From the NCBI GenBank assembly GCA_905182515.1, contig CAJJBW010000004.1, positions 33,131-97,130 on the forward strand: a stretch of 64,000 nucleotides of DNA, given 5' to 3'. Under the pieces are notes generated by a model. That model saw nothing but the letters and a program-made list of their open reading frames with translations. It was not told where the DNA came from and searched no databases. The translations under genes and the position numbers were made by a program. This document shows positions 18,836 to 63,070 of the stretch, one piece after another; position 1 is the stretch's first letter, and each line of letters starts with the position of its first letter. The stretch is from an uncultured Candidatus Poseidoniales archaeon. GTDB lineage: Archaea > Thermoplasmatota > Poseidoniia > Poseidoniales > Thalassarchaeaceae.

Positions 18836-18846
18836 TTATTTATTTA

Positions 18847-18870
18847 TCAAATGTCTGAACTACGCTCCAT
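18847..18870 (+). promoter_or_regulatory. Conserved 24-nt upstream element, copy 1 (TCAAATGTCTGAACTACGCTCCAT)
   Basis: 21/24 identical to 56777-56800. It starts 70 nt upstream of the probable ATG (18917) of the 3000-aa gene, immediately after the AT-rich box TTATTTATTTAT. Confidence 0.5.
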
Positions 18871-18916
18871 TCTTCTTAAGACCCTCATATATCGCCCTAG
18901 ATTCGAGGTTAGTATA

Positions 18917-30776: not shown

Positions 30777-31127
30777 CTATTGAGCATTCGAATCGTTATC
30801 ATAATGTGCCCGAATCTCTTCTATTCGTGCAGAAAGTACATTATCTACTGTAACTCCTTCTAGAGTTTCTCTGCGAATATATTCTCTTGCTCCTTGCTTT
30901 AGAACATATTCGGCTGTGTCTGAGTGTAATTTACAAAAATCTCGCATTCTAATGGCAAGATCTGGTCCCAAATCAACTTCCACTACCTCATTCATAGTGG
31001 AAAGTGGTGAAGTAAGATATTTCCTTACTGCTTCCCTTATTACATCAGATCTATTTCTCGTCCCATCTAATCCCACTCTAAGATCTAGTTCTAGAAGGTA
31101 ATCTTCTGGAAGTCTGAGTGACACCAT
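30777..31127 (-). CDS. Ribbon-helix-helix (CopG/Arc/MetJ-type) DNA-binding protein with two RHH-like units in one chain
   Basis: Unit 1: MVSLRLPEDYLLELDLRV...RNRSDVIREAVRKYL. Unit 2: VEVDLGPDLAIRMRDFCKLHSDTAEYVLKQGAREYIRRE. GGGAGGG lies about 10 nt upstream of ATG 31127. An alternative ATG at 31160 could be leaderless. The 182-codon ORF-track version (to 31325) adds an implausible hydrophobic extension that overlaps the divergent gene. Confidence 0.6.
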   Translation of the reverse strand: MVSLRLPEDYLLELDLRVGLDGTRNRSDVIREAVRKYLTSPLSTMNEVVEVDLGPDLAIRMRDFCKLHSDTAEYVLKQGAREYIRRETLEGVTVDNVLSARIEEIRAHYDNDSNAQ

Positions 31128-31183
31128 CGGGCTGTTCCCTCCCACTCTGGTGCTCTTCATGAGTATGGCAGAGGAGGTGAGGG

Positions 31184-31225
31184 ATATAAAGATAATGCAA
31201 TTGAAAGACAATTGTATTACAATTA
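31184..31225. promoter_or_regulatory. Divergent promoter region: TATA-like ATATAAAG followed by three CAATT(G/A) hexamers at 11-bp phasing (candidate RHH operator)
   Basis: ATATAAAG at 31184-31191. CAATTG at 31198-31203, CAATTG at 31209-31214 and CAATTA at 31220-25, so the hexamer starts are exactly 11 bp apart. Confidence 0.45.
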
Positions 31226-31305
31226 AGAAAGATATGAAAATATTTATTATCGGGAATAGTTTATTTTCAAGGGCACGGTCGTTTCTCATAAATAGAGGCC
31301 AAAGA

Positions 31306-32619
31306 GTGAAAATCATCAATGACACAATACATGGGCAATTCAGTATTTCTGGAGTGCAAGAAGATTTACTTCAGACTCCGGAAATAAATAAATTAAGCCA
31401 TATAAAACAGTTAGGGCTCGCTCATTTAGTTTTCCCAGGTGCCCACCACACTAGATTTGAACATTCTCTAGGCGTTTCTCATGTAGCGGGAATGATGGCA
31501 GATTCGTTAAATTTAGATGATCAAGAGAAATTGACTGTACAAGTTTCAGCTATGCTGCATGATGTTGGCCATGGTCCATTTTCTCATACATTAGAACATA
31601 TATTACATGAACAAGGAGGGCTTGATCATATGTCTATAACTGAGGGAATTATACTTGGTGAGTATGATATATTAAGAGAAGAAGAGAAATCTAAGAATTT
31701 AAGGGTAAGAATACCTGATATTCTAGAATCTAATGATTTAGATCCTAAAGAGGTTGCGGATTTAATCAGGGGGCCCAACGCTGGCGGTACAGAACGTTCA
31801 TTACTTTCTTGGACCGAGGGTAAAGAAGATTTTGTTGATATTGATAATACTCTGGCTCATTTGGTCCACGGGCCTGTTGATTGTGACCAAATTGACTATT
31901 TATTACGAGATTCACATTTTACTGGAGTTAAACATGGGGTAATAGATCATAGGAGACTAATATCAAGTATGACTAGAAAAGGTGGAGATATTGCAATAAA
32001 AGAAGGTGGTATTACTGCATTGGAAGGTATGTTAATGGCTAGGGGATTAATGTATAGTGCTGTTTACTTCCACAGAGTTACAAGGGTTACAGAAGTAATG
32101 CTTTCCAGTGCGGTCGAGAGAAGTCTTGATACGTTACCAGAATCCCTTGATATGCAAAGATATGTCGATTCAGAAGTTTGGGGGGCATTGAATGCGGCAA
32201 ATGATTACTCAAGAGATATAGTTAGGAGATTTAAGTACCGTAAATTAATGAAAGTGTGCGTAAGCTTACGGCGTCAAGATTTGACCCAAGATCAAGTTAC
32301 TAGGTTAATTGAAATGTCTCAAAATTCCTCTAAAAGACATATATTTGAAGACGATATAGCCAACCGCGCTGGATTACTCCCTGGTTATGTTTTAATAGAT
32401 ATGCCAAGTGCTAAACTGCTCTTATCTGAGCCTAGAATGTCTCAAGTAGATATCAAAATAGTTGGCGATGATGGTAAGACAAGGTGGCTAAGGGAACACA
32501 CTCCAATTGCTGAAGCATTACGAAATCGACAAGTTAGTCAAGCTGCAGTATATGTCATGACTCTCTCAAGTCATAAAAAAATTGTATCCGAGTTAATTAA
32601 ACGACATCTTCTTGTTTAA
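31306..32619 (+). CDS. HD-domain metal-dependent phosphohydrolase (COG1078 / dGTPase-SAMHD1-like fold)
   Basis: Family-typical N-terminus (V)KIINDTIHGQFSIS. Motifs HTRFEHSLGVSHVAG and LHDVGHGPFSH, then DCDQIDYLLRDSHFTGV. GTG at 31306 is preceded by GAGG at 31295-31298. The ORF-track start at 31150 would overlap the divergent promoter. Confidence 0.8.
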   Translation: MKIINDTIHGQFSISGVQEDLLQTPEINKLSHIKQLGLAHLVFPGAHHTRFEHSLGVSHVAGMMADSLNLDDQEKLTVQVSAMLHDVGHGPFSHTLEHILHEQGGLDHMSITEGIILGEYDILREEEKSKNLRVRIPDILESNDLDPKEVADLIRGPNAGGTERSLLSWTEGKEDFVDIDNTLAHLVHGPVDCDQIDYLLRDSHFTGVKHGVIDHRRLISSMTRKGGDIAIKEGGITALEGMLMARGLMYSAVYFHRVTRVTEVMLSSAVERSLDTLPESLDMQRYVDSEVWGALNAANDYSRDIVRRFKYRKLMKVCVSLRRQDLTQDQVTRLIEMSQNSSKRHIFEDDIANRAGLLPGYVLIDMPSAKLLLSEPRMSQVDIKIVGDDGKTRWLREHTPIAEALRNRQVSQAAVYVMTLSSHKKIVSELIKRHLLV

Positions 32620-37870: not shown

Positions 37871-37964
37871 AAGTTATCAGGGTGGCTACTCCACGAACCG
37901 TTAAAGCAACCCGTCAATTCGCCGCGATGTTGAGCCTTAAGGCTGCAACGAATGGTGATGAAAA

Positions 37965-40900
37965 ATGAATACAAAAGAAGAGGCGAAAGAGAGTAAATTT
38001 TCTACCAAGGATTTTACTCCTATTCCTGTAATAATGACTACTTTGTTAGTACTTTATTTTGGAGTTAGTTTCGCCGTTAATGGAGAAATAGGAAATGATG
38101 GATATGCAGAAATCTTGATTCTACCTATGGCTGCTGCAATAGCATCTGCCATAGGTCGAATAAGCCCATTCCTTCCTATGGAGCAAATGCCTAAATATCG
38201 CACTATGTCAATTTCATTAGGGATCGTATTGGTTGCATTTTTGTTAAATATAATTTCTCCTAGCAATTTTAATAATATTTTTATCGTAACATTTGTTTTA
38301 GTTGGGATATTATCAGTCATGGCATCACAATCTAAACACTTTGAAGAATCTAATTTACTTTTATCAATGGTCATTGGTTTCCATCTAGCAGTTTCCTTTG
38401 CATCAAATTTATCTATGGATGCAGGTTTGGATATTAACTCTCAGAGAACTTCAATCGGAATAGCATTCATATCATTTTGGATAGCATCTATATCTGTTGG
38501 ATTCACTCTTGCTATGTATCTCAGAGGGACATTAGATCATAAAGGCAACAACCCTTTCTTCTCTGTAATACCTGTTTTCACTAAAAATAAATCAGTTGTA
38601 TTATTCTCAAGCTTAATATCATTAGTATATATTATTCCATTATTACAATTTGAAAATAACAACTCACTTGGAATAGTTTGGGCCATATCTACGAGTCTAA
38701 TCGTTATATTTTATGCATTTTGCAGGTCTGAAAGATGGTTCGTATTAGGGGCTATAGTGGCCATAAATTGGTTTATTTATACTCTAGGGCATATTCAGGA
38801 AATTGGCAATACTTTTTATCCGGATGTATTTGAAGGTGAAGGCTTTTTAGGGGCCTTTTCATGGTTTTTCATTACTTTCTGGTTAAATGTTGCAGCAATT
38901 TCTTTGGCCTCAAAAGGTTACTTTGGAGATATCGCTCCAATGCGCACTCATGGTAAATTTAGGATATGGTGGAATGCAAATTTTTACAATATTTTAATAC
39001 CACTCTCATTCTTAGTTGCTCTAACTGTCAGGGTCGTTTGGAACGTCGTTCCTGCAATGAATGCATCAGGAACTGGATTATGGGATATGTCAGGTGGGTC
39101 AGATCCTTGGTACATGAAGCGTGTTATTGATTACATAGTAGTCAATAATAGCCATCTGATTTTTGATGCAGATAGAGCATATCCAATGGGTGCAATCAAT
39201 CCCCGGCCACCTCTTTTTACATGGTCACTAGCATTGGGTGGAATGGCATTATCTTGGGTTTTGGAATCTGATAATACTGGTGAAGTTGTTTGGTGGAGTT
39301 TATCTTCATTGCCTGCTATTTATGGTGCATTAATAATATTCCCAGTTTCAGGTATAGCAAATAGGATATATGGTAAGAAGGCTGCAATATTGTCAGCGTG
39401 GTTGATTGCATTTATGCCTGGGCATATTAGTCGTTCTACATTTGGTATGGTAGATCACGATTCATTTGCAATATTACTACTTTCTACGGCATTCTATTTT
39501 TGGATTACTTCTCTATCATATATGGAGCAAGAAAGAATTTTTAAGAAAACTTCAGCAAATCCACTATACATTATCGCTGGAATTAGAGAATCCTGGGTTA
39601 GAAATCCGAAGGTTATGGCTAATGCCACACTTTCAGGTATAGCATTTGCAATTATGGCACTTGGTTGGAAAGGTTTCGTTTATGGGCCAGCAATAATATT
39701 CCTAGTATTTTCTTTACAATTATTGCTTAACCTGTTTAGGTCTAGAGACAGTATTCAGTTAACTTCTGCTAATTTACAAATGTTATTCACAACCCTAATA
39801 ATTGCTCTTCCATTTTACGCGTGGCCAGGTTTAAATTTAGTATTGAATCCTAATGGTTTAGAACCATTATTCTTTATTATTGGATTCTCATTGATACTTG
39901 GCTGGGTAACTTGTTCATTTAGAGATAAGCCATGGCTATTAGTTTTGGGTGTCGGAACTACACTTGTTTCATTAATATTGCTGATGTTATTCTTACTACA
40001 AGAAGCTGACATATATGCAGGATGGGATATCCTCTTTACTGGTGGTTTTTACTTTGATAAGAATAAAATATTCGGTACAATAGGTGAGGCCCAGGCACCA
40101 AGTAGAGGCGTTTTATTCGCCTCTTATGGTCCAATTGTTGCATTAATAGCATTATCTTATGCTTTTGTTTTCCTTTGGAGGGGCGCAAGAAGCAACAAAG
40201 GGGCATTCACTCTTTTGGGTTCATGGGGCATAATTTCTACATACATGGCCTGGTCTGCAGGTAGATTTATCATCAATGCAACTCCAATAATGGCTATTTT
40301 AGGAGGCATTGGAATCGCTATGCTTTGGAAATCTGCCAATTTCTCAAACTTTTCAAAGGAATGGAGAAATTCTGGTATAGGAACGCCAAGAGCTAGATTT
40401 AGGTCACTTTGGCCTGCATCAAAGAGCCAAGTTGGCGTGCCAATACTGGCTATTGTATTCATGCTGGTATTTTCTCAACATGTTACTTACGGAATTGATT
40501 CTGGAATACCTAGGGGGTCTGAATATGCTTCAGATGTTGATCAGGCCATCTATGATTTAACTCCTGATATTCTAAGAACAAAATTACTTGGAGAATTCTC
40601 TATACTTGATAGTTCTGATTATAACTATGGCTCTCCTACTGAATTTGAATACATCGGTACATTCGGACCTAGTTTCAACAGTTATGGATGGAATGATGCA
40701 TTCTCATGGCTTGAAAGTCAAGATTCTGATGTTGGATTCAGTGAAAGGCCAGCCTTTGTTTCCTGGTGGGATTATGGTTTTAGTGCTTTAACACAAGGGC
40801 AACACCCTACTGTTGCAGACAACTTCCAGTCAGGGATACCTCATAGTGGAGGGATGTTATTATCTCAAGGCCAGGATGACACAATTGCCCTTTTCATAAC

Positions 40901-43900
40901 AACTCTTACTCAAGGTGATATGAAGGCTAACAATGGTATAGTAAGTGATTTGTTATTATCTACATTATCATATAACATGAATGAAGCACAAATTAAAGAA
41001 TACTCTAGTATTATGTCTAATACTAAATCTTCCTTTGTAATAGGGCATGCTATGCAAGTCAGAGCAATTCAAAATGGAGTAGAATTACTAAGTGGCTACC
41101 AACTAAACTCTGAGGGAATACCAAGCCAAGATCTCGAATGGGTTGTAGTTTCTGAAAACGGCGATAGAACTTCGTTAGGTGATAATAAATCTGCAGCTTT
41201 ATCATTATTTAATCAAACTAGGGGGTCAGCATCTGTATCTTCTTCATTATCAAGTTGGGATGAAGGCCTCTCTCCCTCTTACTATGATATCGGCAATTAT
41301 AGGTATACTACTGATCTTATCGAGGACTTCGATTCAGCATCTACTTCGATTCATAAGACCAATTCTAAATTAGCAATCTCTAGGGCGTTTTTAGTATCCG
41401 CATTTGATATTGATGCATTAGTTGACATATATCATGATATATCTACATCAATAACTTACGAAGTCCAAGATTATGACGGCCCACTTGGAAGTACAGTTGA
41501 AAGGAACAATGAAATCAGATATTTTGCTGTTGATAATAAATTATATCCTCTAGGAGGGTCATATTATGAAGATTATTCATATCATAGAGGGCAAACAACA
41601 GGAATATTCCATGCTCCTACTGGACTTTCTGGTTTAGATATGAATAACTATATTTCAACGCTTTACCTAACACAAAGAGGAGATGGGCCAATAGTGCCAA
41701 GATCTTCTCAGGAATTCAATGATGCATATTTATCTGATTTGGAACTTCAACAAAGTGGTGCAATATCGGACTCCACTCAAGTAATTAGGTACACTGATAT
41801 AGATTATCAACATAAAGCTAGTTTCTTTGATACAATGGTGGCAAGAACTTATGTTGGATATGGTACATCTACATTAGGACTCCAAGGAGATGCCGAATCT
41901 CCTTCAGTATGGTTTAATCCTCAGAGCTCAGGTCTAATAGGTGCTCCAGGGACATATCTACAAAATGCTTGGGCTTTACCAGGGGCAATGATGAATCATA
42001 TGGTAATATCAAATTGGTACGATAGTGATTATGATGATGATGGAATAGATAATATTGCAGATCTCACTAAGTGTGGAGATTTAATCGAAAGCAACATTAC
42101 TTCTAATTTATCTATAGGTGATACATCCATTTCATTAGTTGATGCATCATTAATGCCAATCAGTGGAAGTGCGAATCTAAATGACGATATTGAGGTACAG
42201 TGGACTGGTAAGAGTGATAATTCTTTAACTGGAGTAAGCAAGATTACTAAAGATATCAAAGAAGGATCTCAATTATCATATAATCCTGATAGAGGTTGTG
42301 GTAGTATATATGATTCTAATAGATTTGTAAAGATTCTGAAATATTACAGTGGAGCAACTTTAGAAGGAACGGTTTCTCTTGATGGAGATGGAATAGTTCC
42401 AAATGCCCGAATTTTAGTTGAAAGAGATGCTTTTAGCGGAGATGAAACTGCGGATTCTGATGGTAATGTTGTCGACAGAGATGGCAGAACATATTGGATC
42501 CCTATAGGATATTCTGATGCAGATGAGAATGGTAAGTTCTCTTTGACAGTCCCTGCTGGTAAGATTCGAATCTCAGCTTATATTGGAGATACGGACTTAG
42601 ATTCTGCTAGAGCATCAATCATGACGTCAGACGTAGGCCAAACAATGTTTGAACTAGTTATCGAAGAGAATACCCAAAGAATGACAAATCCCATAACTGG
42701 GATACTTGGAAATGTCGCTGGTGCTACATGGCTTTCAGAAACTATAGTTAATGTTTCAGGATCCGAAGGTCATAGTAACGGCGAAGAAAAAATACAAGTT
42801 TCTATTGATGTGTCATCATCTTCATCCTCAGGAGTGTTGTCTTGGGCAGGTAGTGGCGATTTCAATGGTCAACCAATAGAGAATGCCCAAATAGTATTAT
42901 CTCCTTCTTCTGAATTAATAGCTTTAGATCCTTATTTAATTTCAACTTCTAATGGCACAGTTACTGGAGATGACCTCCAATTCCAAGGATTAGGGGAGGT
43001 ATTATTCACAGGTGCTGGTAATGTTGTCTCACCTAATAATATATTATCAGTGTACGATTTTACTGGCCAACATACTCAAGACATCTATAATAACCATAGC
43101 ATAATTGGTGATGGGTTATTTACTGGAAAAGGACTTTTGTCCAATGGTGTGATAAAAGATGATATTGAAATAATCGTGTGCCAAGATGATACGTTGCCCG
43201 AAGGTGTTGATATTTGTATCAACAATGAAGAAAATTACTTACTAAATGGAACTTATAACGCATCAGGAAAATTCACATCTGTTGGAAAATCAACATTTAC
43301 AAAAACCCTTATCCGGTCAACTTTGATCGGTTCAGGGACCTTCACCGTAGACACTACTGAAGCACTAGATTCATATGGGATTGTAAATGGTACAGGGACA
43401 TTCTCGGGAACTGGTATATTTAGTGGCGCTATGGTCCAGCCAGGGACATTCCGCGTCGTTAATGCAATTCCAGGTACTTACGATGTTTCTGTAATATTTG
43501 GGGATGGGACACAAGTCAATTTAACTAACCAATTTACAATACCATTGCGAGATTCACCATCCATGTCTATGCCTGTTATTGTATTTGGAGGAACTATTTC
43601 TGGTCATTTGATAGATTCTAATGAGAATGTAGTAAATTCCTCAGTATCTTTGATCAAGGGCATCAATTCAATTGATCAAGAAATGCCAGTTGAAGATTGT
43701 TCAATAATAAAATTCGCTCCTTGTTTCATTTATCCCGACGATACAGGTAAAATTTCATTCGGACCAATAACGCCCGGCTCATATCTCGCAGAGATAGATT
43801 CTGATGGTGATGGCATTCCTGAAGTTTCTATGGCTTACGACTTCAATGTCGATACACCTTTCGATGCAATTTTCCCTTCTCCTCTGCCAGAAACATCTGA

Positions 43901-46900
43901 TATACGATTTACTTTAATTGATGAAGGAATTATGATGGAAGATCTGAATATTTCTTTCTATTATGAAAATCAAATAAACAATATAGTAAACGCATTATAT
44001 GATGCAGATTCTAAAGAATACAATGTCGAATTAACCCAGGGGACATGGATTTTAAGTCATAGTTTAGATGAGAATAAGCAAATCTGGAAAAGTATCGTTA
44101 TTGGTTCTGAGGATTTAGAAATGGAAATTGAATTTGAAGTTAGTAAATTAGTAAGTGGTTTGGCTCACATATCTTCCACAGATTTAATTACTGATAATTC
44201 AATAATTACTCCATTACCTAACCATCCGGTCTCATTCTATTGGGGCGAAGAACTAACTACAATTGTATATACTAATTTAGATGGAGAATTTGAAGTAACT
44301 TTGCCAGTTAACTCAATAGTGGATGCATCATTACAATATTCACTTGATTTACCATATTCATCAAACTATAGATTTACAGTAAATGATGTACTAGATGACA
44401 ATCAAACATTTAATTTAACAGCAGAAAAATCATTAATTGTAAACGGCAAATTAAGTCTTGACATAATAGGGAACTATTATACCAATTCTCTTGATGATTG
44501 GAGCACCGTACAGATAATTGCCACGCCATCTCCATTGGATGATTCCAAACCATCTTGGAGGGCTACTGTTGATGAAACTGGTAATTTCCAAATGTTCCTA
44601 AAAGAAGGAGATTGGATTTTCTCCAAACAAACCTCACTAAATAATCCAAGTAACATTTTGGAAGAGGTCCTAATTATTAATGAGTCTGTAAAAGATATAG
44701 ATTTATTACTTTATTCAGATATTAGTCCAGTGATTATCGACTTATTCCTCGATCACAGTAGGGATGGAAACATTTCAAATGGTACTATGGTACAATATCC
44801 ATTCGCTATTAAATCTTTAAATCCCTTGATTCCAACATATGAGGTAGCTATAGATGGTGATGAGTGGGTGTCGTATGGTAGAGCGGAAGTATATATGGCA
44901 CCAGGGACATATTCGATAGTAATTGATAGGGCAAATCCATCTGATGGAGACCTATTTGATACTTTATACACCTCTGATGACTCATTTGATATTGGACTAA
45001 TTGTAAATGAATTTTCAACTTCTATAGCATTTGAACCAGAATGGCTTACGAATTTAACGTTGACTAATCAAAGTGGGGGGATACTATCCAACCAATTAGT
45101 CAGATTCAAAGATATTGATTCAGGATGGTTATTATCATTCATGTCAAACTCTAATGGTTCTATTTCAACGTATATCCCAGAAGGGGAATGGCTGGTAACA
45201 ATCGATTCATTAGAAACTAATACAGATGTATTCGAAAGTATCAGAAGATTAATTTCTGTTACAAATATCTCAGCAGGACAGAGTATTGATTTAATTACTA
45301 ATGAAGTAGCAAAAACTACAATAATTCTTACTAATGGGGAAATTCCTTTATCAAATGTTCAATTAAAATTAATAAGTGAAACATTAGGTACTACTAATTC
45401 ACCATATTCTGATGAACTTGGAATGATTGATTTAAAAATTGAACCAGGAATGTGGGATGTAGAATTAAATTATACTGATAATAATGGAGTTATGTGGATT
45501 ATTGAGACTACTCCTTTATTGGAAGAAGGATTGTCAGCTGGTGAAAACTCTGGAATTTTGTTGAATGTAAGTAAATTTGTTCAACTCAAAGGAACAGTAT
45601 TTTGGGATTTAAATAATAATAATTTACCAAACTTTGGAGAAGGCGTTTTAAATGCCTCAGTAAACCTAACTTCTGATTTACAATCTGAACTTGTAGTTAC
45701 TGACGAATTAGGTGCTTGGTCTATTTATCTACCTCACGAGAGTATTTGGTCAATTTCAACCCATATTGATGGATTTAGTGATGCCGAATCAACAGTATCT
45801 TTGTCAAATGATTCTCATGTGAAAAATATTCAAATAACTGCAGGAGTAGTTGAAATTTCTGGTTTTATTTCATATATTGATGAAAATCAATTCCAAGAGA
45901 TAGCAGATGAAATCACAATCGTTTTACTCCCAGCGTCTGGGATAATAAGGGACAGAGTAACTCCAAATAAAATACTAAATGATCAAATGATTTGGGATGG
46001 GGAATGGAGCGTTATGGTCGAACCGGGTGATTGGATTGCATGGATTACAGCTGAATCTACTAATAATGTACCTTATTTGGTTTCAATCGACTATATGGAT
46101 GTAGGGATAAATGGTTTAGTTACAAATTCTGAAATGTCAATAGGCGGAAAACTTATTTTAGATACCCAATGGCTAGATTATGATGGTAATGATAAATCAT
46201 TATTAGATTTGGTTTCTCATAATGTGATCATTAATTTAAGATCTTTGCAAATAAGTTGGGACGAGCAATTAAATGAAAATGGTACTTTAGAATTAATTTT
46301 ACCAATAGGTCAAGTTGACGCATCAAGTTCTTTCAATTATAGTCAAGAGGGCATGGTCATGGATTATTCTGGAGGAAAAGGTGCAACGATCAGATCATCT
46401 CAGGATACTCCAGTAACAACTTTGGAAATCACTGTAATTAAGAATCAAGACATATTAATTACGAATGCTGCATTAGGTAATGCCGACTTAGTATTATCTG
46501 ATATGCCATGCACTCCTGAGTGTACTTATGACGCAGTAGACTTTAATCTTAATCTTAATTATATTGGCCACCAGTCATATGATAACTATACTGTTAACGG
46601 TATCGTTCCAGGGGCAGATGGCGTAAATTGGACAGTTGAATTCAAAGACGATTCCGGAAATTGGAACTCTTCGACATCAGTAGAAATGGGATTGGAAAAT
46701 ACTCTTTCAATTAATGACTTTGAGGTCAGAATAACTCCTGCAAAGGTCAACACAGCTCACCACTTAAATAATGGCCATCAGATTAGAATTATCTTTACAA
46801 CCTTGGATGGATATGTAAATGAGCATGTAATAATAGTTAATGTGCCTCAATCACATGCATTTTCCTCAGATGGATTCTCTAAGGACATATATGGGATTGT

Positions 46901-47675
46901 TCCTGATGAATTATTTAGTATAGACATAGGTTTCTTGAATGAAGGCAATGGAGATGATATTTTCTTCTTTGACTATAGTATAGATTCTTTAGATGATTGG
47001 ACAGTTTCTGGTATCCGATCGCAACCAGTTGCCCCATTTGCTAATGGACTAACATCAGTATCTATTATTCCACCTGGTAACATCAGTGAAGATCAATATA
47101 CTCTGACATTAATTGTCACGGATGAGAACAACAATACTTATGGCCCGTATTCAACTATTATTCAGAAATCTAAGTCAATATTGTCACTATCTACAGATTC
47201 TAAAATTCAATTGTTAAGTGGCGATTCAGGCCCAATATCTGGTGAAATTGCTACTTATTTAATTGAGGTAAAGAATACGGGATTAATACCTGCTTCATCT
47301 GTTGAATTAAATGCAGTTCTTTGTTCAGATATATTATGTAATAATTACATGGGAATAAACGGTTCTTCTATGTACAATATCCCTGCAGAAGGATCATCAA
47401 CTTTCTACATTGACATGGATTTCACAAACATTAAAGTTGGGAAATACTTTGTTCAGTTTTACTTTACAGATATTCTCAGGGTTGATGACATAGATTTAGA
47501 ATCTTGCAATGCATTATCCGAAGATAGTACTGAATGTACTATGGAGGCTCAAACTTTAGCCGCAGGTGAAGATACTGACCGGCCAATTTTAGGATATATT
47601 ATGGGATTATTATTGATAGTTACATTATTGTATATAATTAGTCGCTCTACTAGGAGACCCGGGGCTCCATTCTAA
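37965..47675 (+). CDS. aglB: Giant (3236 aa) AglB/STT3-family oligosaccharyltransferase fused to an extra N-terminal polytopic module, a >2000-aa extracellular beta-sandwich-rich extension and a C-terminal TM anchor
   Basis: GGTGAT lies 5 nt upstream of the ATG. About ten hydrophobic segments precede the STT3 core. STT3 motifs: SDPWYMKRV (first external loop), MVDHDSFAILL, and WWDYG (40764-40778). Later a carboxypeptidase-regulatory-like unit: GTVSLDGDGIVPNARILVERDAF...DENGKFSLTVPAGKIRISAY. Terminal helix ILGYIMGLLLIVTLLYII followed by SRSTRR. Confidence 0.8.
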   Translation: MNTKEEAKESKFSTKDFTPIPVIMTTLLVLYFGVSFAVNGEIGNDGYAEILILPMAAAIASAIGRISPFLPMEQMPKYRTMSISLGIVLVAFLLNIISPSNFNNIFIVTFVLVGILSVMASQSKHFEESNLLLSMVIGFHLAVSFASNLSMDAGLDINSQRTSIGIAFISFWIASISVGFTLAMYLRGTLDHKGNNPFFSVIPVFTKNKSVVLFSSLISLVYIIPLLQFENNNSLGIVWAISTSLIVIFYAFCRSERWFVLGAIVAINWFIYTLGHIQEIGNTFYPDVFEGEGFLGAFSWFFITFWLNVAAISLASKGYFGDIAPMRTHGKFRIWWNANFYNILIPLSFLVALTVRVVWNVVPAMNASGTGLWDMSGGSDPWYMKRVIDYIVVNNSHLIFDADRAYPMGAINPRPPLFTWSLALGGMALSWVLESDNTGEVVWWSLSSLPAIYGALIIFPVSGIANRIYGKKAAILSAWLIAFMPGHISRSTFGMVDHDSFAILLLSTAFYFWITSLSYMEQERIFKKTSANPLYIIAGIRESWVRNPKVMANATLSGIAFAIMALGWKGFVYGPAIIFLVFSLQLLLNLFRSRDSIQLTSANLQMLFTTLIIALPFYAWPGLNLVLNPNGLEPLFFIIGFSLILGWVTCSFRDKPWLLVLGVGTTLVSLILLMLFLLQEADIYAGWDILFTGGFYFDKNKIFGTIGEAQAPSRGVLFASYGPIVALIALSYAFVFLWRGARSNKGAFTLLGSWGIISTYMAWSAGRFIINATPIMAILGGIGIAMLWKSANFSNFSKEWRNSGIGTPRARFRSLWPASKSQVGVPILAIVFMLVFSQHVTYGIDSGIPRGSEYASDVDQAIYDLTPDILRTKLLGEFSILDSSDYNYGSPTEFEYIGTFGPSFNSYGWNDAFSWLESQDSDVGFSERPAFVSWWDYGFSALTQGQHPTVADNFQSGIPHSGGMLLSQGQDDTIALFITTLTQGDMKANNGIVSDLLLSTLSYNMNEAQIKEYSSIMSNTKSSFVIGHAMQVRAIQNGVELLSGYQLNSEGIPSQDLEWVVVSENGDRTSLGDNKSAALSLFNQTRGSASVSSSLSSWDEGLSPSYYDIGNYRYTTDLIEDFDSASTSIHKTNSKLAISRAFLVSAFDIDALVDIYHDISTSITYEVQDYDGPLGSTVERNNEIRYFAVDNKLYPLGGSYYEDYSYHRGQTTGIFHAPTGLSGLDMNNYISTLYLTQRGDGPIVPRSSQEFNDAYLSDLELQQSGAISDSTQVIRYTDIDYQHKASFFDTMVARTYVGYGTSTLGLQGDAESPSVWFNPQSSGLIGAPGTYLQNAWALPGAMMNHMVISNWYDSDYDDDGIDNIADLTKCGDLIESNITSNLSIGDTSISLVDASLMPISGSANLNDDIEVQWTGKSDNSLTGVSKITKDIKEGSQLSYNPDRGCGSIYDSNRFVKILKYYSGATLEGTVSLDGDGIVPNARILVERDAFSGDETADSDGNVVDRDGRTYWIPIGYSDADENGKFSLTVPAGKIRISAYIGDTDLDSARASIMTSDVGQTMFELVIEENTQRMTNPITGILGNVAGATWLSETIVNVSGSEGHSNGEEKIQVSIDVSSSSSSGVLSWAGSGDFNGQPIENAQIVLSPSSELIALDPYLISTSNGTVTGDDLQFQGLGEVLFTGAGNVVSPNNILSVYDFTGQHTQDIYNNHSIIGDGLFTGKGLLSNGVIKDDIEIIVCQDDTLPEGVDICINNEENYLLNGTYNASGKFTSVGKSTFTKTLIRSTLIGSGTFTVDTTEALDSYGIVNGTGTFSGTGIFSGAMVQPGTFRVVNAIPGTYDVSVIFGDGTQVNLTNQFTIPLRDSPSMSMPVIVFGGTISGHLIDSNENVVNSSVSLIKGINSIDQEMPVEDCSIIKFAPCFIYPDDTGKISFGPITPGSYLAEIDSDGDGIPEVSMAYDFNVDTPFDAIFPSPLPETSDIRFTLIDEGIMMEDLNISFYYENQINNIVNALYDADSKEYNVELTQGTWILSHSLDENKQIWKSIVIGSEDLEMEIEFEVSKLVSGLAHISSTDLITDNSIITPLPNHPVSFYWGEELTTIVYTNLDGEFEVTLPVNSIVDASLQYSLDLPYSSNYRFTVNDVLDDNQTFNLTAEKSLIVNGKLSLDIIGNYYTNSLDDWSTVQIIATPSPLDDSKPSWRATVDETGNFQMFLKEGDWIFSKQTSLNNPSNILEEVLIINESVKDIDLLLYSDISPVIIDLFLDHSRDGNISNGTMVQYPFAIKSLNPLIPTYEVAIDGDEWVSYGRAEVYMAPGTYSIVIDRANPSDGDLFDTLYTSDDSFDIGLIVNEFSTSIAFEPEWLTNLTLTNQSGGILSNQLVRFKDIDSGWLLSFMSNSNGSISTYIPEGEWLVTIDSLETNTDVFESIRRLISVTNISAGQSIDLITNEVAKTTIILTNGEIPLSNVQLKLISETLGTTNSPYSDELGMIDLKIEPGMWDVELNYTDNNGVMWIIETTPLLEEGLSAGENSGILLNVSKFVQLKGTVFWDLNNNNLPNFGEGVLNASVNLTSDLQSELVVTDELGAWSIYLPHESIWSISTHIDGFSDAESTVSLSNDSHVKNIQITAGVVEISGFISYIDENQFQEIADEITIVLLPASGIIRDRVTPNKILNDQMIWDGEWSVMVEPGDWIAWITAESTNNVPYLVSIDYMDVGINGLVTNSEMSIGGKLILDTQWLDYDGNDKSLLDLVSHNVIINLRSLQISWDEQLNENGTLELILPIGQVDASSSFNYSQEGMVMDYSGGKGATIRSSQDTPVTTLEITVIKNQDILITNAALGNADLVLSDMPCTPECTYDAVDFNLNLNYIGHQSYDNYTVNGIVPGADGVNWTVEFKDDSGNWNSSTSVEMGLENTLSINDFEVRITPAKVNTAHHLNNGHQIRIIFTTLDGYVNEHVIIVNVPQSHAFSSDGFSKDIYGIVPDELFSIDIGFLNEGNGDDIFFFDYSIDSLDDWTVSGIRSQPVAPFANGLTSVSIIPPGNISEDQYTLTLIVTDENNNTYGPYSTIIQKSKSILSLSTDSKIQLLSGDSGPISGEIATYLIEVKNTGLIPASSVELNAVLCSDILCNNYMGINGSSMYNIPAEGSSTFYIDMDFTNIKVGKYFVQFYFTDILRVDDIDLESCNALSEDSTECTMEAQTLAAGEDTDRPILGYIMGLLLIVTLLYIISRSTRRPGAPF
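40764..40778 (+). other. WWDYG catalytic signature of STT3/AglB/PglB oligosaccharyltransferases
   Basis: Codons TGG TGG GAT TAT GGT, in frame with 37965 (residues 934-938). Context: RPAFVSWWDYGFSALTQGQHPTVADNFQ. Confidence 0.85.
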
Positions 47676-47725: not shown

Positions 47726-48967
47726 ATGAATTTGCAACCTCTTGGTAATCTGGAACTTTTGCCCGAACCCGATGAACCCAACATTCTAACTGCGATTGAT
47801 CAAGATGCCCAAGGTTATGCTGGTAATGTATATGGAGTAAGTGATGAAGAAGCACGTAAGTTAAGAAGAATAATACTGCCGATTAAAAGATTAATTTGGC
47901 CTTGGGGGGCGTTAATGTTTACGGTATTTGTGACATTCCTAATTATTAGTTGGCCAGTCATAAGCCCCTTACTATCACAAGCACTGCCTGATTCTGAATG
48001 GGCATTTGAAGAGACAGGTATTAGAGAAATGCATAATTTAGGATATTTCGGAACAGGAATTAGAGTATGCATGGTTGATACCGGTATCGACATATCTCAT
48101 CCAGATCTAGAACATTTGGAATTGGCAGGCTTTAGGGATTTTTATGCTGAAGATCACAGCAACGTACGTGATATAGGTAGTAACCTCCATGGAACATTGA
48201 TGTCAGGAATACTTGCTGCAAATGGAAGTTTAGTTGGTGCTGCTCCAGAAATTTCTCTTTCAGTTGCAATATCACTTGGCCCATCGGGAACATCTGGTCA
48301 AGAAGGAATGGTATCCCAAGCAATAAGGTGGTGCCGAATATCTCAAAATGCTGACATAATAAGTTTGAGTCTCGGTGCAAATCCGGGTGAAAGAATAGAC
48401 GACCGTTCAGAAACTGCTATAGCAGTAAAAGAGGCTATTGAGGATGGTATTTTTGTAATTGCTGCAGCAGGAAATACCGGATTAGACAGTTCAATTAATG
48501 ATGTTTCAATCCCGGCTAATGTAGAAGGCGTAATTTCAGTTGCAGCAACTAATAAGAAAGGTTCAATTTGGCCAGATAGTGCTATTGCATCTAATATCGA
48601 CCCATATAGTGAATCCGAAAGAGTGTTTCCTAATCAAAAACCTGAAATTTCAGCACCAGGAGTAAGGTTATTGTCAACATATTCAACATCTCCAAATAAT
48701 CCTCTATACGCATATTCTTCTGGGACAAGTGACTCAACAGTATTAGTCACTGGAGCCCTAGCTTTACTTTTACAACAATATGGGGATTTAATCGCCGGAG
48801 GAGATGGTGTGATTAGTTATGACGAATTGTTACGAGTTAAATCATCACTTGCATTGTCGACAGGAACTGATATTGAAGGTTCAGGGCACGATTTACAAAA
48901 AGGATATGGTAAATTAAATGTGATTGCGTGGGGTGAATTAATCGCAATTGAATTTAATCCTAATTAA
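47726..48967 (+). CDS. Membrane-anchored subtilisin-like serine protease (peptidase S8)
   Basis: TM helix: WPWGALMFTVFVTFLIISWPVI. Asp: VCMVDTGIDISHPDL. His: NLHGTLMSGILAA. Oxyanion Asn region: AAAGNTG. Ser: YSSGTSDSTVLVTGALALL. Confidence 0.8.
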   Translation: MNLQPLGNLELLPEPDEPNILTAIDQDAQGYAGNVYGVSDEEARKLRRIILPIKRLIWPWGALMFTVFVTFLIISWPVISPLLSQALPDSEWAFEETGIREMHNLGYFGTGIRVCMVDTGIDISHPDLEHLELAGFRDFYAEDHSNVRDIGSNLHGTLMSGILAANGSLVGAAPEISLSVAISLGPSGTSGQEGMVSQAIRWCRISQNADIISLSLGANPGERIDDRSETAIAVKEAIEDGIFVIAAAGNTGLDSSINDVSIPANVEGVISVAATNKKGSIWPDSAIASNIDPYSESERVFPNQKPEISAPGVRLLSTYSTSPNNPLYAYSSGTSDSTVLVTGALALLLQQYGDLIAGGDGVISYDELLRVKSSLALSTGTDIEGSGHDLQKGYGKLNVIAWGELIAIEFNPN

Positions 48968-49025: not shown

Positions 49026-52000
49026 ATGAGGGACAAGGATAAAGCGCGTAGTACATTTTTAGTATTCTTAATGTTTTCAAGTATTTTAGTTTCATTAATA
49101 GGGCCAGCATCTATTGTTTCAGCAAACAATGAAACTGAATCTGGGACTATAACTGGAACTGAAATATGGTCAGGAGTTCATCAATTAACTGGAGATGTAA
49201 CTATTGCAACAGGTGCCCAATTAATAATAAATCCTGGTACTATTATTAACATACCTAACGGGACTCATATTGATGTAAGAGGGAGTATATGTGCAGGAGA
49301 ATATTTTTGTGGAGCCAGCTCTAATGCGAACCCAAGTCAAAAAATTAAATTCCAATGGAGTGACCCATTGGTATCCAACGCGACTGGGAGTTGTGCAGGA
49401 TTAACTACTAATAATCAAGAAATTTCTGTAACCGATCCATCATGTTATGAAGGAATCTTGATTCGTAGTTCTATAGATCTTTCCTTAACTGGCATGAGGC
49501 ATGTGGTGATTGAGGGGGCTTATGGAATACCTCATTTTATTAATTCAGTAAATGAATGGAGATATGGTGCACTAGTGATAGACGGCGCAAGCCCCACTCT
49601 TAGAAATCTAGATTTCTCTGATATAAATACATCTAGTATTGTTACTACAAATCTAGCTCAACCAATTTTAATAGATGGCTCATTCACAGTTGGTAATGAC
49701 GAAGAAAGTAACGTTGGCGGCTCTGCTCTCCAAATTTATAATTCGGGAACATCAATTGCACCATTCACATTAAATAGTCCATTTTTTAAACAAGGAACAA
49801 ATAAGGGATGTCAAAGTAATGATGGCGGCAGATCTGCTTTATGGGCCCAAGAATCTTTCATCAATATCAATAATGCGGATATAGGAACTGGTGATTTTGG
49901 GGTTACTTTTAGAGATACGGCTGGCAAATTTACTAATTCAACAATTGATGTAAATTGTGTCGGCATATCTGTACAGGGTAAAAGAACAGTGAACTCTGTA
50001 TCATTTGGCTTAGATATACTAAATAATCAAGTAACAACCGCTGAAGGAACTGGTATTTTTACTTCCAATAGTGCTTTAGTTGATATTAGATATAATGCAG
50101 TGCAAGGGGCATCAGCAGGTTCGGGAATAGCAGTTTCATCTAGCGTGGCTAAAATTCATGAAAATATTATAGGTCCGATTACTGGTTATAATGGATTATG
50201 GTTATTTGGTTCCTTTGAAGTGGAAGCAGAGAATAATACAATTTCAGATACTAATAGGGAGCCAATTATTGCAGGGGCATATTCTAATTCTGATACATCA
50301 ATATCAAATTTATATCTTGTAAATAATGATATTTCAACAGATGGAACTGGCACTTGTTCTAGTAACAAATGGTGGGGAGGAAGTTTCTTCTGCCCAGCAA
50401 TAATGATATTTAGATCAGGTGCAACAATACATGATAATGATATTCAAGCAGGATCTGCAAATGCCATTATGGCGATAGGGGCATTATTAGATGTACAAAG
50501 AAATATTTTTGACGGTGCACTTACAGGGGCCCTGATAAAGAATTATAATGATGGTTTTGCAGGTAGTGAGCAATATGGGTCCTTAGCATTCTTTTCTCAA
50601 AATATTTGGTCTAATGTAGGCATGACCTACAATATTACCAAGAGTTCTGTTACTGTGCAATCAGAAACCATTCCTGCCGCTGCTACTGGGGAATATCCGG
50701 TCAGACTTTCATGGCCAGATCAAGAAGCATGGCATGCCAATAATTTCCAAACTAAAATCATGGTTCCTCCTGTAAAAAGCTGCCCAGCATGTGATGAGGT
50801 TATTCCACGTAATTTTCCTTTGGCATTAAATATGGACAATAACTCTACAGTATTTACATTTTCAAATTTGACAAATTTAGATACTAATAACATATACATT
50901 GAAACTCAACCAACTCATTATGCCGTACAAGTTAGTAGGGCAGAATTAGTCAGATTCCAGGCTTTAATAAATGGAGAAAAAGTTTCTGATGCCTTAGTGT
51001 TAATTGAGGATGCCTTAGGTAATGACCTATATTCTATTCTTACCGTATCAGATGGATATACTCCTTGGTTTTCTCTCCCTTCGAATTTCCATTTGGATTT
51101 TAGGGGGCTAGGTGGAGGAGATAATCCTGATGGATTTGCTGATGATGAATATGAAGATTCTTGTTCAGATGGAATTGATAATGATGGAGATCTAACTGTT
51201 GATAGTAATGACGTTGACTGTAATTATTCAGAAGGAACGAGAGAGTTATCGAGGTTCTTTTACACCATATATCGCTTTGGATTCGGTTATGCTACAGGAG
51301 AATTCACACTTGAAGAATCTACATATCAAGATTCAATAAACCTTGTCAACTTGGCGCCATCTGTACAAATAACTCAATCAAATGGTCATTCATATAGGAA
51401 AATTGTTAATATTACTGGTAATGCACATGATGGGCAATTAGCAAATAGCTATGCTTCAAATGAATTCGCACAATGGAGTCAACAAGGATATGTTCATCAT
51501 ATAGAGGTCAAAGACCCCTTTACTAGTGAATGGGAAGATGCTGGTTTTGCAGTAGATGATAGTGATGCCAATGAAGGTACGGTGACCCGCTTCAATCATC
51601 CGTTTAGTGAATGGTATTATGAAATTGATATGTCCAATAGAGAAGAAGGAGACTACATTTTTGCATTCCGTTCATTTGATGGGACAGATTACAGTGAAGT
51701 AGTTTCTAAGGAATTTAAACTTAATACAGAAGCTCCAATTATATCCGTATCAACACCAACATCACTATCTACTCATTCTGATAACTTTATTCATTTTGAG
51801 GGTGATTCTTCAGACCCGTACGGATGCCCATTAGATTGCAATAAAGACTTAAAATCAATATATATGCTAATTGAAGGTCCAAGTTTTCAAGTTACAACTC
51901 CTATCGAGGTTAATCATAATGGTTCATGGAGTTGGGATTGGGATTTCAGTGGGCAACCACGAGAATCCGCCGCATACACTTTTACAATATGGGCATCTGA

Positions 52001-53273
52001 CTCAGACTTCTGCAAGGGGATTATAGATGTCTGTTCACCCATCGTACTTTCATTAACAGTAGATAACTCTAACCTTGCTCCAATTATAAATATTAATGAA
52101 CCAACCGATGGACTAAGGCTATCTGTTTCTCAAAATACTCAAGTAAGTGGCGTTGTGAGGGACTTCGATGGAAGTGTATCTAGAGTAGATATAGAAATCA
52201 AAGATGTTCAAAATGAGTATATAATAATTCATTCTCTTTCCATATCTGAATTTAGCGACAATGGTGAATGGAATTATTCTTGGGATTCACGGCAATTAAA
52301 ACATGATTCTACTTATCTTTTAAGATTTAGATCTTATGATGGATATGATTTCAGCAGTTGGACTGAGTTAGAGATAATCGCAGACAATCCTCTCGATGCT
52401 GACAACAATCAACCAACTTTCACTTCCGAAGGATGGGTTGAAAATAATATATTATATTGTGATATAAATTCTAAATCTTCTAGTAGATGTACAACTATTG
52501 AACTCAATCTTTTGGAATTTTTCGAGGACCAAGATTATGATATACAATATATATCAGTTTACAATGGTCAAAATAGTTATGATGATAATTATGGAATAGT
52601 AATAAAAGTTAGTAGCAATGGAATAGCTACTTACAATCCTACAGATATGAATTTTTACGATAATGATATTTCTACATGGTCATTATTGGATGTAATATTT
52701 GTTGCAACTGACTCTTTCGGCTCGAAAATTAATTCTGATCCTATATCCTTTACAGTGGAACCAATTGAGTTTAAGATTAATGATTTAGATTATGACACAA
52801 TAGAGGAAGAAGGAGTAATGTTATATTCAGGAACTGGCTTACCTGGTAAAACAATTACTGTTATTGTTGGTGGTAACCAAATTAACAGTACTATAGTATC
52901 TGAAAATTCAACATGGATACTGGGAATACCCGCATCAAGATTACCTGATAATGTGGCATCTCCTAAATTTTCAATGGGCGGCCAAGACCCAATTCAAGTT
53001 GCTGACATCTTCGTAGGGCCATTCGAAGAGCAGGGATATCCTACGGGTTTAATTATCGTTGTAATTATAATTATTATAGGGATCGTTACTCTTGCATATT
53101 TCTTTGTAGAGTTAGAAGTAGATGAACAAGAAAAAGAATCTTTAGAAGGGGATTCAGATTTTGGAAGTACTAATGACGAATCAATTTTACAAAAACATGA
53201 TGATCACCCTGGTTGGCTTTGGAACCCAATCGATAAAGAGTGGATTGAAGATACTGAGTATGTTTCAAAATAA
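49026..53273 (+). CDS. Large (1415 aa) secreted/anchored protein with a right-handed parallel beta-helix region (NosD/pectate-lyase-like), Ig/cadherin-like modules and a C-terminal TM helix
   Basis: Signal peptide: STFLVFLMFSSILVSLIGPASIVSA. Repeated N/G/S/T-rich about 22-aa turns (e.g. NNQVTTAEGTGIFTSNSALVDIRYNAVQGASAGSGIAVSSS). One acidic Cys-bracketed motif CSDGIDNDGDLTVDSNDVDC (51162-51221). C-terminal helix: GLIIVVIIIIIGIVTLAYFFV plus an acidic tail. Confidence 0.65.
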   Translation: MRDKDKARSTFLVFLMFSSILVSLIGPASIVSANNETESGTITGTEIWSGVHQLTGDVTIATGAQLIINPGTIINIPNGTHIDVRGSICAGEYFCGASSNANPSQKIKFQWSDPLVSNATGSCAGLTTNNQEISVTDPSCYEGILIRSSIDLSLTGMRHVVIEGAYGIPHFINSVNEWRYGALVIDGASPTLRNLDFSDINTSSIVTTNLAQPILIDGSFTVGNDEESNVGGSALQIYNSGTSIAPFTLNSPFFKQGTNKGCQSNDGGRSALWAQESFININNADIGTGDFGVTFRDTAGKFTNSTIDVNCVGISVQGKRTVNSVSFGLDILNNQVTTAEGTGIFTSNSALVDIRYNAVQGASAGSGIAVSSSVAKIHENIIGPITGYNGLWLFGSFEVEAENNTISDTNREPIIAGAYSNSDTSISNLYLVNNDISTDGTGTCSSNKWWGGSFFCPAIMIFRSGATIHDNDIQAGSANAIMAIGALLDVQRNIFDGALTGALIKNYNDGFAGSEQYGSLAFFSQNIWSNVGMTYNITKSSVTVQSETIPAAATGEYPVRLSWPDQEAWHANNFQTKIMVPPVKSCPACDEVIPRNFPLALNMDNNSTVFTFSNLTNLDTNNIYIETQPTHYAVQVSRAELVRFQALINGEKVSDALVLIEDALGNDLYSILTVSDGYTPWFSLPSNFHLDFRGLGGGDNPDGFADDEYEDSCSDGIDNDGDLTVDSNDVDCNYSEGTRELSRFFYTIYRFGFGYATGEFTLEESTYQDSINLVNLAPSVQITQSNGHSYRKIVNITGNAHDGQLANSYASNEFAQWSQQGYVHHIEVKDPFTSEWEDAGFAVDDSDANEGTVTRFNHPFSEWYYEIDMSNREEGDYIFAFRSFDGTDYSEVVSKEFKLNTEAPIISVSTPTSLSTHSDNFIHFEGDSSDPYGCPLDCNKDLKSIYMLIEGPSFQVTTPIEVNHNGSWSWDWDFSGQPRESAAYTFTIWASDSDFCKGIIDVCSPIVLSLTVDNSNLAPIININEPTDGLRLSVSQNTQVSGVVRDFDGSVSRVDIEIKDVQNEYIIIHSLSISEFSDNGEWNYSWDSRQLKHDSTYLLRFRSYDGYDFSSWTELEIIADNPLDADNNQPTFTSEGWVENNILYCDINSKSSSRCTTIELNLLEFFEDQDYDIQYISVYNGQNSYDDNYGIVIKVSSNGIATYNPTDMNFYDNDISTWSLLDVIFVATDSFGSKINSDPISFTVEPIEFKINDLDYDTIEEEGVMLYSGTGLPGKTITVIVGGNQINSTIVSENSTWILGIPASRLPDNVASPKFSMGGQDPIQVADIFVGPFEEQGYPTGLIIVVIIIIIGIVTLAYFFVELEVDEQEKESLEGDSDFGSTNDESILQKHDDHPGWLWNPIDKEWIEDTEYVSK

Positions 53274-56800: not shown

Positions 56801-56850
56801 CAGTATGATAAATTAGTCCAGTTTGCTAAATTCATAATCTAGTGGTACCT

Positions 56851-62562: not shown

Positions 62563-62572
62563 AGTACTATTA

Positions 62573-63070
62573 ATGCCCCCCCCTCTACGGTTGACTATGG
62601 AAGATAACTCAGATTCTATCCCTCCAATTGAATCTCCAATTGAGGACAAATTACTATTCCTTCAAGAAAATATGGTTAATTTTATTAATCAATATAATCT
62701 TCCATTAGTAGAAGTATCTTTAGTTATTTCAAAATATATTCGTATTTTGTCAGACTCTTTAAATTTAGAGGCTGAAAAAGTAAACGAGAAAATTCCTTAT
62801 TCGGAAATGGAAAATCCCACTATTGAAAATGTTGTAGATAGTAATATTCAATCTTCTTTTCCATTAGAAACGGTATTAAAAAACGTAGATATAGATAGAA
62901 TGGATATATTTGATACCATTATTAGGACAATAATAAATTCAACAGAAATGCCCTTCCTTAATGCTATATCTCTGTTGAAAGATTGGGAATCGATAACAAT
63001 AATTCAGTTATCAAAATCTTCTAAACCAGGTCACCTATTTAGCCCAATAGAATTACCTGAGAATTTTTGA
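62573..63070 (+). CDS. Hypothetical acidic soluble protein (165 aa)
   Basis: The ORF opens at 62507, overlapping the end of the giant gene. The first plausible start after the giant's stop is ATG 62573, followed by a C8 tract (MPPPLRL...). A further candidate is ATG 62597. No recognisable motif. Confidence 0.4.
   Translation: MPPPLRLTMEDNSDSIPPIESPIEDKLLFLQENMVNFINQYNLPLVEVSLVISKYIRILSDSLNLEAEKVNEKIPYSEMENPTIENVVDSNIQSSFPLETVLKNVDIDRMDIFDTIIRTIINSTEMPFLNAISLLKDWESITIIQLSKSSKPGHLFSPIELPENF

Follow-up and report, generated by a model that had tools for sequence, protein, structure and literature searches.

A window of 64,000 nucleotides (nt) from an uncultured Candidatus Poseidoniales archaeon (the whole stretch analysed, on contig CAJJBW010000004.1) encodes a giant oligosaccharyltransferase (OST), which is the AglB/STT3 enzyme of a member of the Thalassarchaeaceae (marine group IIb, MGIIb). 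More likely than not, this protein of 3,236 amino acids (aa) is a functional OST endowed with an ancient, built-in ectodomain of fixed length that is anchored in the membrane at both ends and would serve as a scaffold or accessory module. A frame open over 3,236 codons in DNA of 36% G+C cannot have arisen by chance, and the G+C content is even along the whole open reading frame (ORF). The preliminary description of this DNA had noticed a single 9.7-kb ORF preceded by a GGTGAT Shine–Dalgarno sequence, with the STT3 motifs SDPWYMKRV, MVDHDS and WWDYG, and all of this holds, the motifs falling at aa 379–387, 495–500 and 934–938, respectively. The gene and its parts, with transmembrane (TM) segments and AlphaFold2 (AF2) confidence (predicted local distance difference test, pLDDT) where relevant, are the following.

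37954..37959, + strand: GGTGAT Shine–Dalgarno-like hexamer, 5 nt before the ATG, read from the sequence
37965..47675, + strand: giant AglB/STT3 ORF, 3,236 aa, ATG start, one uninterrupted frame, 9.7 kb
37965..38954, + strand: N-terminal 10-TM module, aa 1–330, Poseidoniales-specific, without a known family
38955..40499, + strand: STT3/AglB TM core of glycosyltransferase C (GT-C) type, aa 331–845 (Pfam, phmmer, Foldseek)
39099–39113, + strand: catalytic motif of the core, D380 in GGSDPWY
39453–39461, + strand: catalytic motif of the core, D497-H-D499
40077–40088, + strand: catalytic motif of the core, T705-I-G-E708
40500..42020, + strand: AglB-type external globular domain, aa 846–1352, with WWDYG at nt 40764–40778
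42021..42326, + strand: acidic linker, aa 1353–1454, predicted disordered (pLDDT ∼30)
42327..43484, + strand: proximal beta array, aa 1455–1840 (AF2 pLDDT 80–92)
43485..47534, + strand: distal beta-sandwich array, aa 1841–3190, ∼13 further domains of immunoglobulin (Ig)/transthyretin-like type, very acidic
47535..47675, + strand: C-terminal anchor, with a TM helix at aa 3208–3226 (hydropathy 2.45), the tail RSTRRPGAPF and the stop codon
47643–47672, + strand: tail RSTRRPGAPF, predicted cytoplasmic C-terminus

The identity of the enzyme relies on concordant profile, sequence and fold comparisons. The Pfam family STT3 (PF02516) matches aa 357–782 with 60.7 bits for a cut-off of 24.5, so that the earlier recognition of an STT3 enzyme from its motifs stands in a profile search as well. 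Searches of the PDB with phmmer and with the family profile return AglB/STT3 structures only, the best being AglB-L of A. fulgidus (AfAglB-L; 5GMY/3WAJ, E ∼3e-12 to ∼1e-11); in the phmmer alignment, GGSDPWY (with D380) pairs with GGNDPWY, VDHD with NDHH and WWDYG with WWDYG. Foldseek ranks 1–18 are all occupied by AglB, STT3 or PglB, headed by 7E9S/3WAK, STT3A/B, yeast Stt3 and PglB, with E-values down to 5e-8 and target-normalised TM-scores of 0.38–0.50 for a model of pLDDT 70. In alignments of 17 and 45 sequences (42–81% identity), D380, D497/H498/D499, TIGE705–708 and WWDYG934–938 are invariant. TIGE705–708 corresponds to the TIxE/SVSE motif of external loop 5 (EL5), its placement between core TM helices being assigned from sequence. 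Conservation peaks in the TM core (aa 331–845), with a mean identity of 68%. The external domain follows with 61%, WWDYG and its flanks being invariant; it matches the structures 3VGP/3VU0 of AglB C-terminal domains, gives a weak Pfam match of AglB_core type, and is homologous to the equivalent region of giant OSTs from outside marine group II (MGII). As conservation remains strong up to about aa 1352, residues 846–1352 are the usual AglB external domain and not part of the extension. Judged by these residues, the GT-C core and the WWDYG-bearing external domain are catalytically intact.

The idea that the STT3 part is dead, acting only as a polytopic anchor while another AglB glycosylates, is very improbable in this context. 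It draws on the low AF2 confidence at the catalytic loops and on the NCBIfam model TIGR04154 (archaeo_STT3, archaeosortase A system-associated), which matches aa 344–968 with 157.6 bits, far under its cut-off of 450. It conflicts with the invariance, over 42–100% identity, of every catalytic residue known from AglB, PglB and STT3 structures, and with the rank of the TM core as the best conserved part. Direct reading of the sequence before the terminal helix finds no PGF-CTERM-like motif.

The membrane part is larger than expected for an AglB. The preliminary description was right about the C-terminal anchor, a hydrophobic helix followed by RSTRR, and overlooked about ten additional TM helices ahead of the core. 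Ten confident helices lie at aa 19–316, according to hydropathy and to an AF2 model of aa 1–1200 (pLDDT 70). In their loops, the predicted cytoplasmic side counts 12 K/R and the external side 0, and this positive-inside tally fixes the orientation of the whole protein. From the end of the core (about aa 845) to the helix at aa 3208–3226, the hydropathy profile contains no hydrophobic segment. The predicted topology thus has the N-terminus inside, 10 + 13 TM helices, ∼2,360 aa outside, one further TM helix and the tail inside. The N-terminal module has a mean identity of 42% to the query among orthologues. It has no Pfam family when three orthologues are scanned alone (E≤10), a Colicin_V match being dismissed (E = 0.0068, far under cut-off, in one of the three orthologues), and Foldseek gives no fold match of its own. 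Duplication of the GT-C core and an internal 5+5 repeat were both considered and rejected (hhalign probability <1% in each case). At the other end of the chain, the closer MGII clade keeps R3230, A3234, P3235 and F3236 without exception, in a terminal motif RRPxAPF-COOH that the more distant MGII clade (P0121, L014–L016) lacks. Beyond the giant OST, the ORFs of the window and of 19 loci are all without an APF tail. A C-terminal sorting signal common to this protein and the other giants of the window was looked for and not found.

From the last core TM helix to the terminal one, the chain counts 2,366 aa. The ectodomain of more than 2,000 aa announced by the preliminary description is therefore real as an external region, but aa 846–1352 of it are the ordinary AglB domain, and the genuine addition beyond that domain amounts to ∼1,850 aa, comprising ∼17 beta-sandwich domains. 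It starts with the linker, which is variable in orthologues (27–116 aa, 35% identity) and is flanked by near-invariant cysteines, C1370 and C1445, kept in at least 90% of the sequences. The proximal array contains a junction sandwich of CarboxypepD_reg type (KYYSGATLEGTV...) that is found class-wide. In the present protein this junction domain (aa ∼1463–1540) has no Pfam match at E≤0.1; PF13620 matches it in most orthologues and AF2 predicts a beta-sandwich, and a lineage-specific insertion probably lowers the PF13620 score. The carboxypeptidase-regulatory-like unit noticed earlier is supported by the orthologues and the predicted fold, and not by a Pfam match in the giant itself. The mean identity of the proximal array is 59%, near the 61–68% of the catalytic parts. 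Its GxGxF repeats (aa ∼1665–1822, nt 42957–43430) are predicted to form unusually long beta strands, of up to 43 residues (pLDDT 85–92). The distal array (aa 1841–3190) diverges to 39% mean identity at near-constant length.

The AF2 model of the extension spans aa 1353–2552 (pLDDT 79) and is entirely beta from aa 1455 onwards. Foldseek relates the array to Gram-positive pilins, SdrD, TIE, the C-terminal domains of SpyCEP and the MG domains of alpha2-macroglobulin, and finds no enzymatic fold in the modelled part. BLASTP comparison of the array with itself reveals no internal repeats. Against the PDB, the family profile leaves the extension without a match apart from NOMO2, weak at E = 0.079; faint NOMO1-like and EMC7 beta-sandwich Pfam matches occur in relatives. 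Between aa 1355 and 3207, the net charge is about −188 and sequons (N-x-S/T) number 33.

Proteins of the same build are numerous. A search of 5.8 billion proteins yielded 492 relatives; 117 of the 120 best are 3,027–3,338 aa long (median 3,173, standard deviation 58) at 42–72% identity, and many different studies contribute to the >100 independent clusters (at 90% identity) in which this length recurs. Some of them are named dolichyl-phosphooligosaccharide-protein glycotransferase (uncultured marine group II/III) or STT3 domain-containing protein. The GTDB species genomes contribute 16 loci, titled Thalassarchaeaceae, Poseidoniales or MGII. Could the ORF result from an assembly chimera or a frameshift that joined two genes? 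This explanation, which has no supporting point, is refuted. Apart from the clusters of equal length, the frame is unbroken on two long contigs, with 3,231 aa on one of 364 kb from an isolate called ‘PACB’ and 3,214 aa on one of 1.53 Mb; the G+C content is uniform over the ORF, and start and stop are conserved. The frameshift or chimera that the preliminary description wished to see excluded is thus discounted by these comparisons, and the joining of an OST, a long external region and a second anchor is real and conserved.

Outside Poseidoniales the design persists in a shorter form. A HMMER search with the core (aa 330–1360) returned 854 relatives; among the best 150 of the 854, clusters of 2,000–2,800 aa with 28–38% identity dominate, ranking after the MGII type. 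They come from metagenome-assembled genomes (MAGs) of Thermoplasmata/Thermoplasmatota and from Caldiplasma sukawensis (Thermoplasmatales, Cuniculiplasmataceae; WP_458329147, 2,093 aa), and are found in databases as carboxypeptidase regulatory-like domain-containing protein, glycosyltransferase family 39 protein or Stt3. These non-MGII giants lack the N-terminal module, their core beginning at residue ∼5–120. A single TM helix and a basic tail close the chain in each of the six examined. Five of the six display the junction pattern (K/E)YYxGAxxxGxV...P(N/G)xRVxV; the Caldiplasma protein (P0256) misses it and has an equivalent stretch by eye. In four of the six, BLASTP matches to the extension are weak but colinear, and in two of these four they lie further along the array. 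The common junction domain and C-terminal anchor indicate that the fusion is ancient and preceded the split of Poseidoniales from other Thermoplasmata. From the same comparisons, Poseidoniales are seen to have gained afterwards the N-terminal module, the linker, a longer array and, in the closer clade, the RRPxAPF tail. As read from the proteins, the long double-anchored architecture is shared by all, or nearly all, of the Thermoplasmata sampled. The rarity implied by the preliminary description is weakened, since hundreds of database clusters across Thermoplasmata share the architecture and some already bear the name STT3; measured by the refuting condition set in that description, the architecture counts as common. 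Its other surmise, that the architecture had not been described, agrees with the full-text searchable literature: searches of it (subscription-only papers excluded) found no paper dealing with a giant AglB/STT3 in Poseidoniales, MGII or Thermoplasmata, and the papers on Thermoplasmatales that mention AglB do not comment on its size. The sequences are publicly available, some of them under the name STT3; the architecture itself seems undescribed.

What the long array does can be approached from its geometry. Constant length, one-to-one orthology of the domains and absence of recent repeats speak against an expandable adhesin and favour a structure of defined size. An adhesive array that binds particles, algae or other cells, with the OST merely as its membrane anchor, is quite improbable on these grounds, even if the nearest folds are those of Gram-positive pilins and of the SdrD and TIE adhesins, the neighbourhood is full of giant surface proteins, and marine group II archaea are generally known to associate with particles and phytoplankton. 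With both ends bound to the membrane, such an adhesin would have no free tip, and its near-invariant length without recent repeats differs from typical expanding adhesins. Moreover, acidophilic and thermophilic Thermoplasmata of very different habitats retain the design, and the modelled part contains no recognisable ligand-binding head domain.

Sequon statistics, computed as z-scores against composition-matched shuffles, bear on the fate of the array. The distal array exceeds the shuffles in sequons, both in other MGII proteins (z = 2.8–9.0) and in non-MGII giants (z = 4.1–8.6); the proximal AglB domain of MGII proteins is at or below chance. Such enrichment fits an exposed, N-glycosylated ectodomain, so that the ectodomain is probably glycosylated, and does not tell glycosylation in cis from glycosylation in trans. 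The earlier suggestion that the ectodomain might be presented to its own enzyme as a cis substrate therefore gains from the family-wide distal enrichment (z 2.8–9), whereas the cis mode is not demonstrated by enrichment and the value in the present protein is marginal.

In the proposed mechanism, the core would perform the N-glycosylation of the cell at the membrane surface, and the acidic, sequon-enriched ectodomain would itself become glycosylated. Pinned at both ends, this ectodomain would form a loop or arch of defined size above the enzyme, and the loop might serve as a built-in scaffold of the envelope or glycocalyx, perhaps as an accessory module, rather than as a free adhesin. A signal peptide or anchor, an ectodomain, a C-terminal TM helix and a short tail make up each of the remaining large envelope proteins of the window. 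The back half of the OST resembles such a protein, with the STT3 membrane domain in the place of the signal peptide. It is a serious possibility, held tentatively, that the array acts as a glycosylated scaffold of the envelope or glycocalyx, or else as an accessory module built into the enzyme and analogous to the single-pass beta-sandwich partners of eukaryotic STT3 or to NOMO rods. A bolder version, in which the OST carries its own envelope, is rather unlikely: the loop would be glycosylated in cis by the basal enzyme and become a principal structural element of the glycocalyx, the OST thus being a single-chain counterpart of the eukaryotic multi-subunit OST with its luminal, single-pass beta-sandwich partners, and in Poseidoniales the N-terminal module would add a membrane function such as the handling of lipid-linked glycans. 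Many members of the Thermoplasmata lack an S-layer, and none is known in marine group II. Cultured Cuniculiplasma strains, from the same family as Caldiplasma sukawensis, the one named species with this architecture, are likewise without one (PMC5155288). The tether to the surface layer that the preliminary description also considered is conjectural.

Several points weigh against a functional OST with a scaffold-like ectodomain. Sequon enrichment in the present protein is marginal (z = 1.9). The candidate for the pocket motif, D971-D-T-I-A-L-F-I978, is of neither DK nor MI type (consensus DxxK and MxxI, respectively), with D972, T973 and F977 invariant and a pLDDT of ∼47–75. AF2 confidence is low near external loop 1 (EL1), EL5 and the WWDYG region. 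Finally, the scaffold or accessory role is deduced from the architecture and, on present data, is inseparable from the rival roles.

The neighbourhood of the gene adds a further alternative. Upstream lie the genes for CarS (CDP-archaeol synthase), which marks the host as an archaeon, and PurD, and downstream the following three.

47726–48967, + strand: S8 subtilase of type-II topology, with a signal-anchor TM helix at aa ∼56–88, no signal peptide and an external catalytic domain
49026–53273, + strand: Ig-rich type-I surface protein of 1,415 aa (Pfam, topology)
53325–55862, + strand: protein with PadR-type helix-turn-helix (HTH), STAND ATPase and TPR domains (Pfam)

The order CarS–PurD–OST–S8 subtilase–Ig protein–STAND/TPR is collinear in 16 of 16 Poseidoniales loci, including those with ∼38% identity, as far as the contigs extend, several of them being short. 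The PadR-like HTH/STAND/TPR gene, which lies two genes downstream of the OST every time, is the best conserved of the neighbourhood, with 87–92% identity where the OST has 65–72%, and 55% where it has 38%. Next to non-MGII giants the downstream trio is not conserved and the neighbours are unrelated. A functional operon with the S8, Ig and STAND genes was considered and rejected, CarS and PurD being equally syntenic and the trio absent beside the non-MGII giants. Because of this equal synteny of housekeeping genes and these unrelated neighbours, the gene cluster is not counted as functional evidence. In metatranscriptomes, the aglB of an MGIIb bin (gene 305) is enriched where genus O1 is active (PMC9723583, supplementary file 6), and the unannotated gene 307 of the same bin is likewise enriched when O1 is active (PMC9723583). 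If the gene order matches, gene 307 would equal the 1,415-aa Ig protein.

The position of the subtilase makes a polyprotein conceivable: cleavage in the linker (aa 1353–1454), perhaps by this adjacent protease, would release an AglB of ∼1,350 aa and a type-I surface glycoprotein anchored at its C-terminus. The linker is suited to it, being predicted disordered, poorly conserved and of variable length (27–116 aa); the back end of the ectodomain has the same design as the free type-I envelope proteins of the window; and in every Poseidoniales locus the next gene encodes the S8 subtilase, whose catalytic domain is external, which keeps the cleavage model alive. It nevertheless appears improbable. 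The near-invariant cysteines bracket the linker, and a disulphide between them, if it forms, would join the halves. The non-MGII giants have no such linker, the sandwich following directly on the AglB domain, and no S8 neighbour. The adjacency of the subtilase may reflect general genome collinearity, given that CarS and PurD upstream are equally syntenic, and the joining of both parts in one frame has been kept by selection class-wide.

Other features of the window and of related loci are recorded here in their own right. The region 15890–27853 encodes a surface protein of 981 aa and, after it, a giant of 3,000 aa, which combines a transglutaminase core with bacterial TSP3 repeats and DUF4129, has TM helices close to both ends and contains 81 sequons. 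A secreted protein of 1,906 aa without a Pfam match is encoded at 56842–62562, and an ORF of 187 aa (62507–63070) overlaps the 3′ end of its gene in a different frame. The ORFs 30777–31325 (− strand) and 31150–32619 (+ strand) overlap by ∼175 nt; for the HD-domain protein, alignment with its orthologues starts no earlier than residue ∼42–53, so that the GTG at 31150 probably lies upstream of the true start. Locus L018 (1–9762), from a non-marine Thermoplasmata MAG, contains another cluster of giant surface proteins: an ORF of 8,356 aa, cut by the locus end, and a 1,077-aa Ig/PKD protein immediately precede the giant OST.

Among known systems, AfAglB-L (3WAJ/3WAK/5GMY/7E9S) is the best match of the giant OST in sequence and fold. 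Both have a GT-C core of 13 TM helices, the EL1 aspartate in G-G-x-D-P-W-Y, the D-H-D/H motif, TIxE in EL5 and the WWDYG external domain. Characterised archaeal AglBs, of ∼600–1,050 aa, stop after this external domain, whereas the giant OST adds 330 N-terminal residues with 10 TM helices and ∼1,880 C-terminal residues that end in a second anchor. AglB is regarded as a single-subunit enzyme of ∼600–1,000 aa and as the minimal model for eukaryotic OST. The non-MGII giants of Thermoplasmata resemble the present protein in having a core followed by a CarboxypepD_reg-type sandwich, a sequon-rich beta array, and a single C-terminal TM helix with a basic tail; they differ in lacking the 10-TM module, the disordered linker and the RRPxAPF tail, in their shorter array (∼1,100–1,500 aa) and in their gene neighbourhood.

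Ribophorin I, OST48/Wbp1 and NOMO of the BOS complex provide a working analogy, being type-I proteins with luminal beta-sandwiches, a C-terminal TM helix and a short cytosolic tail that stand beside a polytopic machine of the endoplasmic reticulum. These eukaryotic subunits are separate polypeptides without demonstrated significant sequence homology to the array, which is covalently joined to STT3 and far longer. With the pilins and MSCRAMM B-repeat adhesins (BcpA, SpaD, SdrD and TIE) the array shares the fold of the domains and their bead-on-string order, at ∼10% identity and with low TM-scores; it differs from them in having neither polymerisation nor a free distal end.

Collectively, the architecture is less singular than the preliminary description supposed, and broader in scope. 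An OST form of 2,100–3,300 aa extends class-wide, including marine group II, which is among the most abundant planktonic archaeal groups of the surface ocean, and it would bear on how surfaces are built and glycosylated in cells that often lack an S-layer. It would also bear on the purpose of the accessory domains of OSTs and on the annotation of giant proteins listed as ‘hypothetical’ or ‘carboxypeptidase regulatory-like’ in Thermoplasmata genomes. As Caldiplasma sukawensis shares the design and its family includes cultured Cuniculiplasma, the question is open to experiment.

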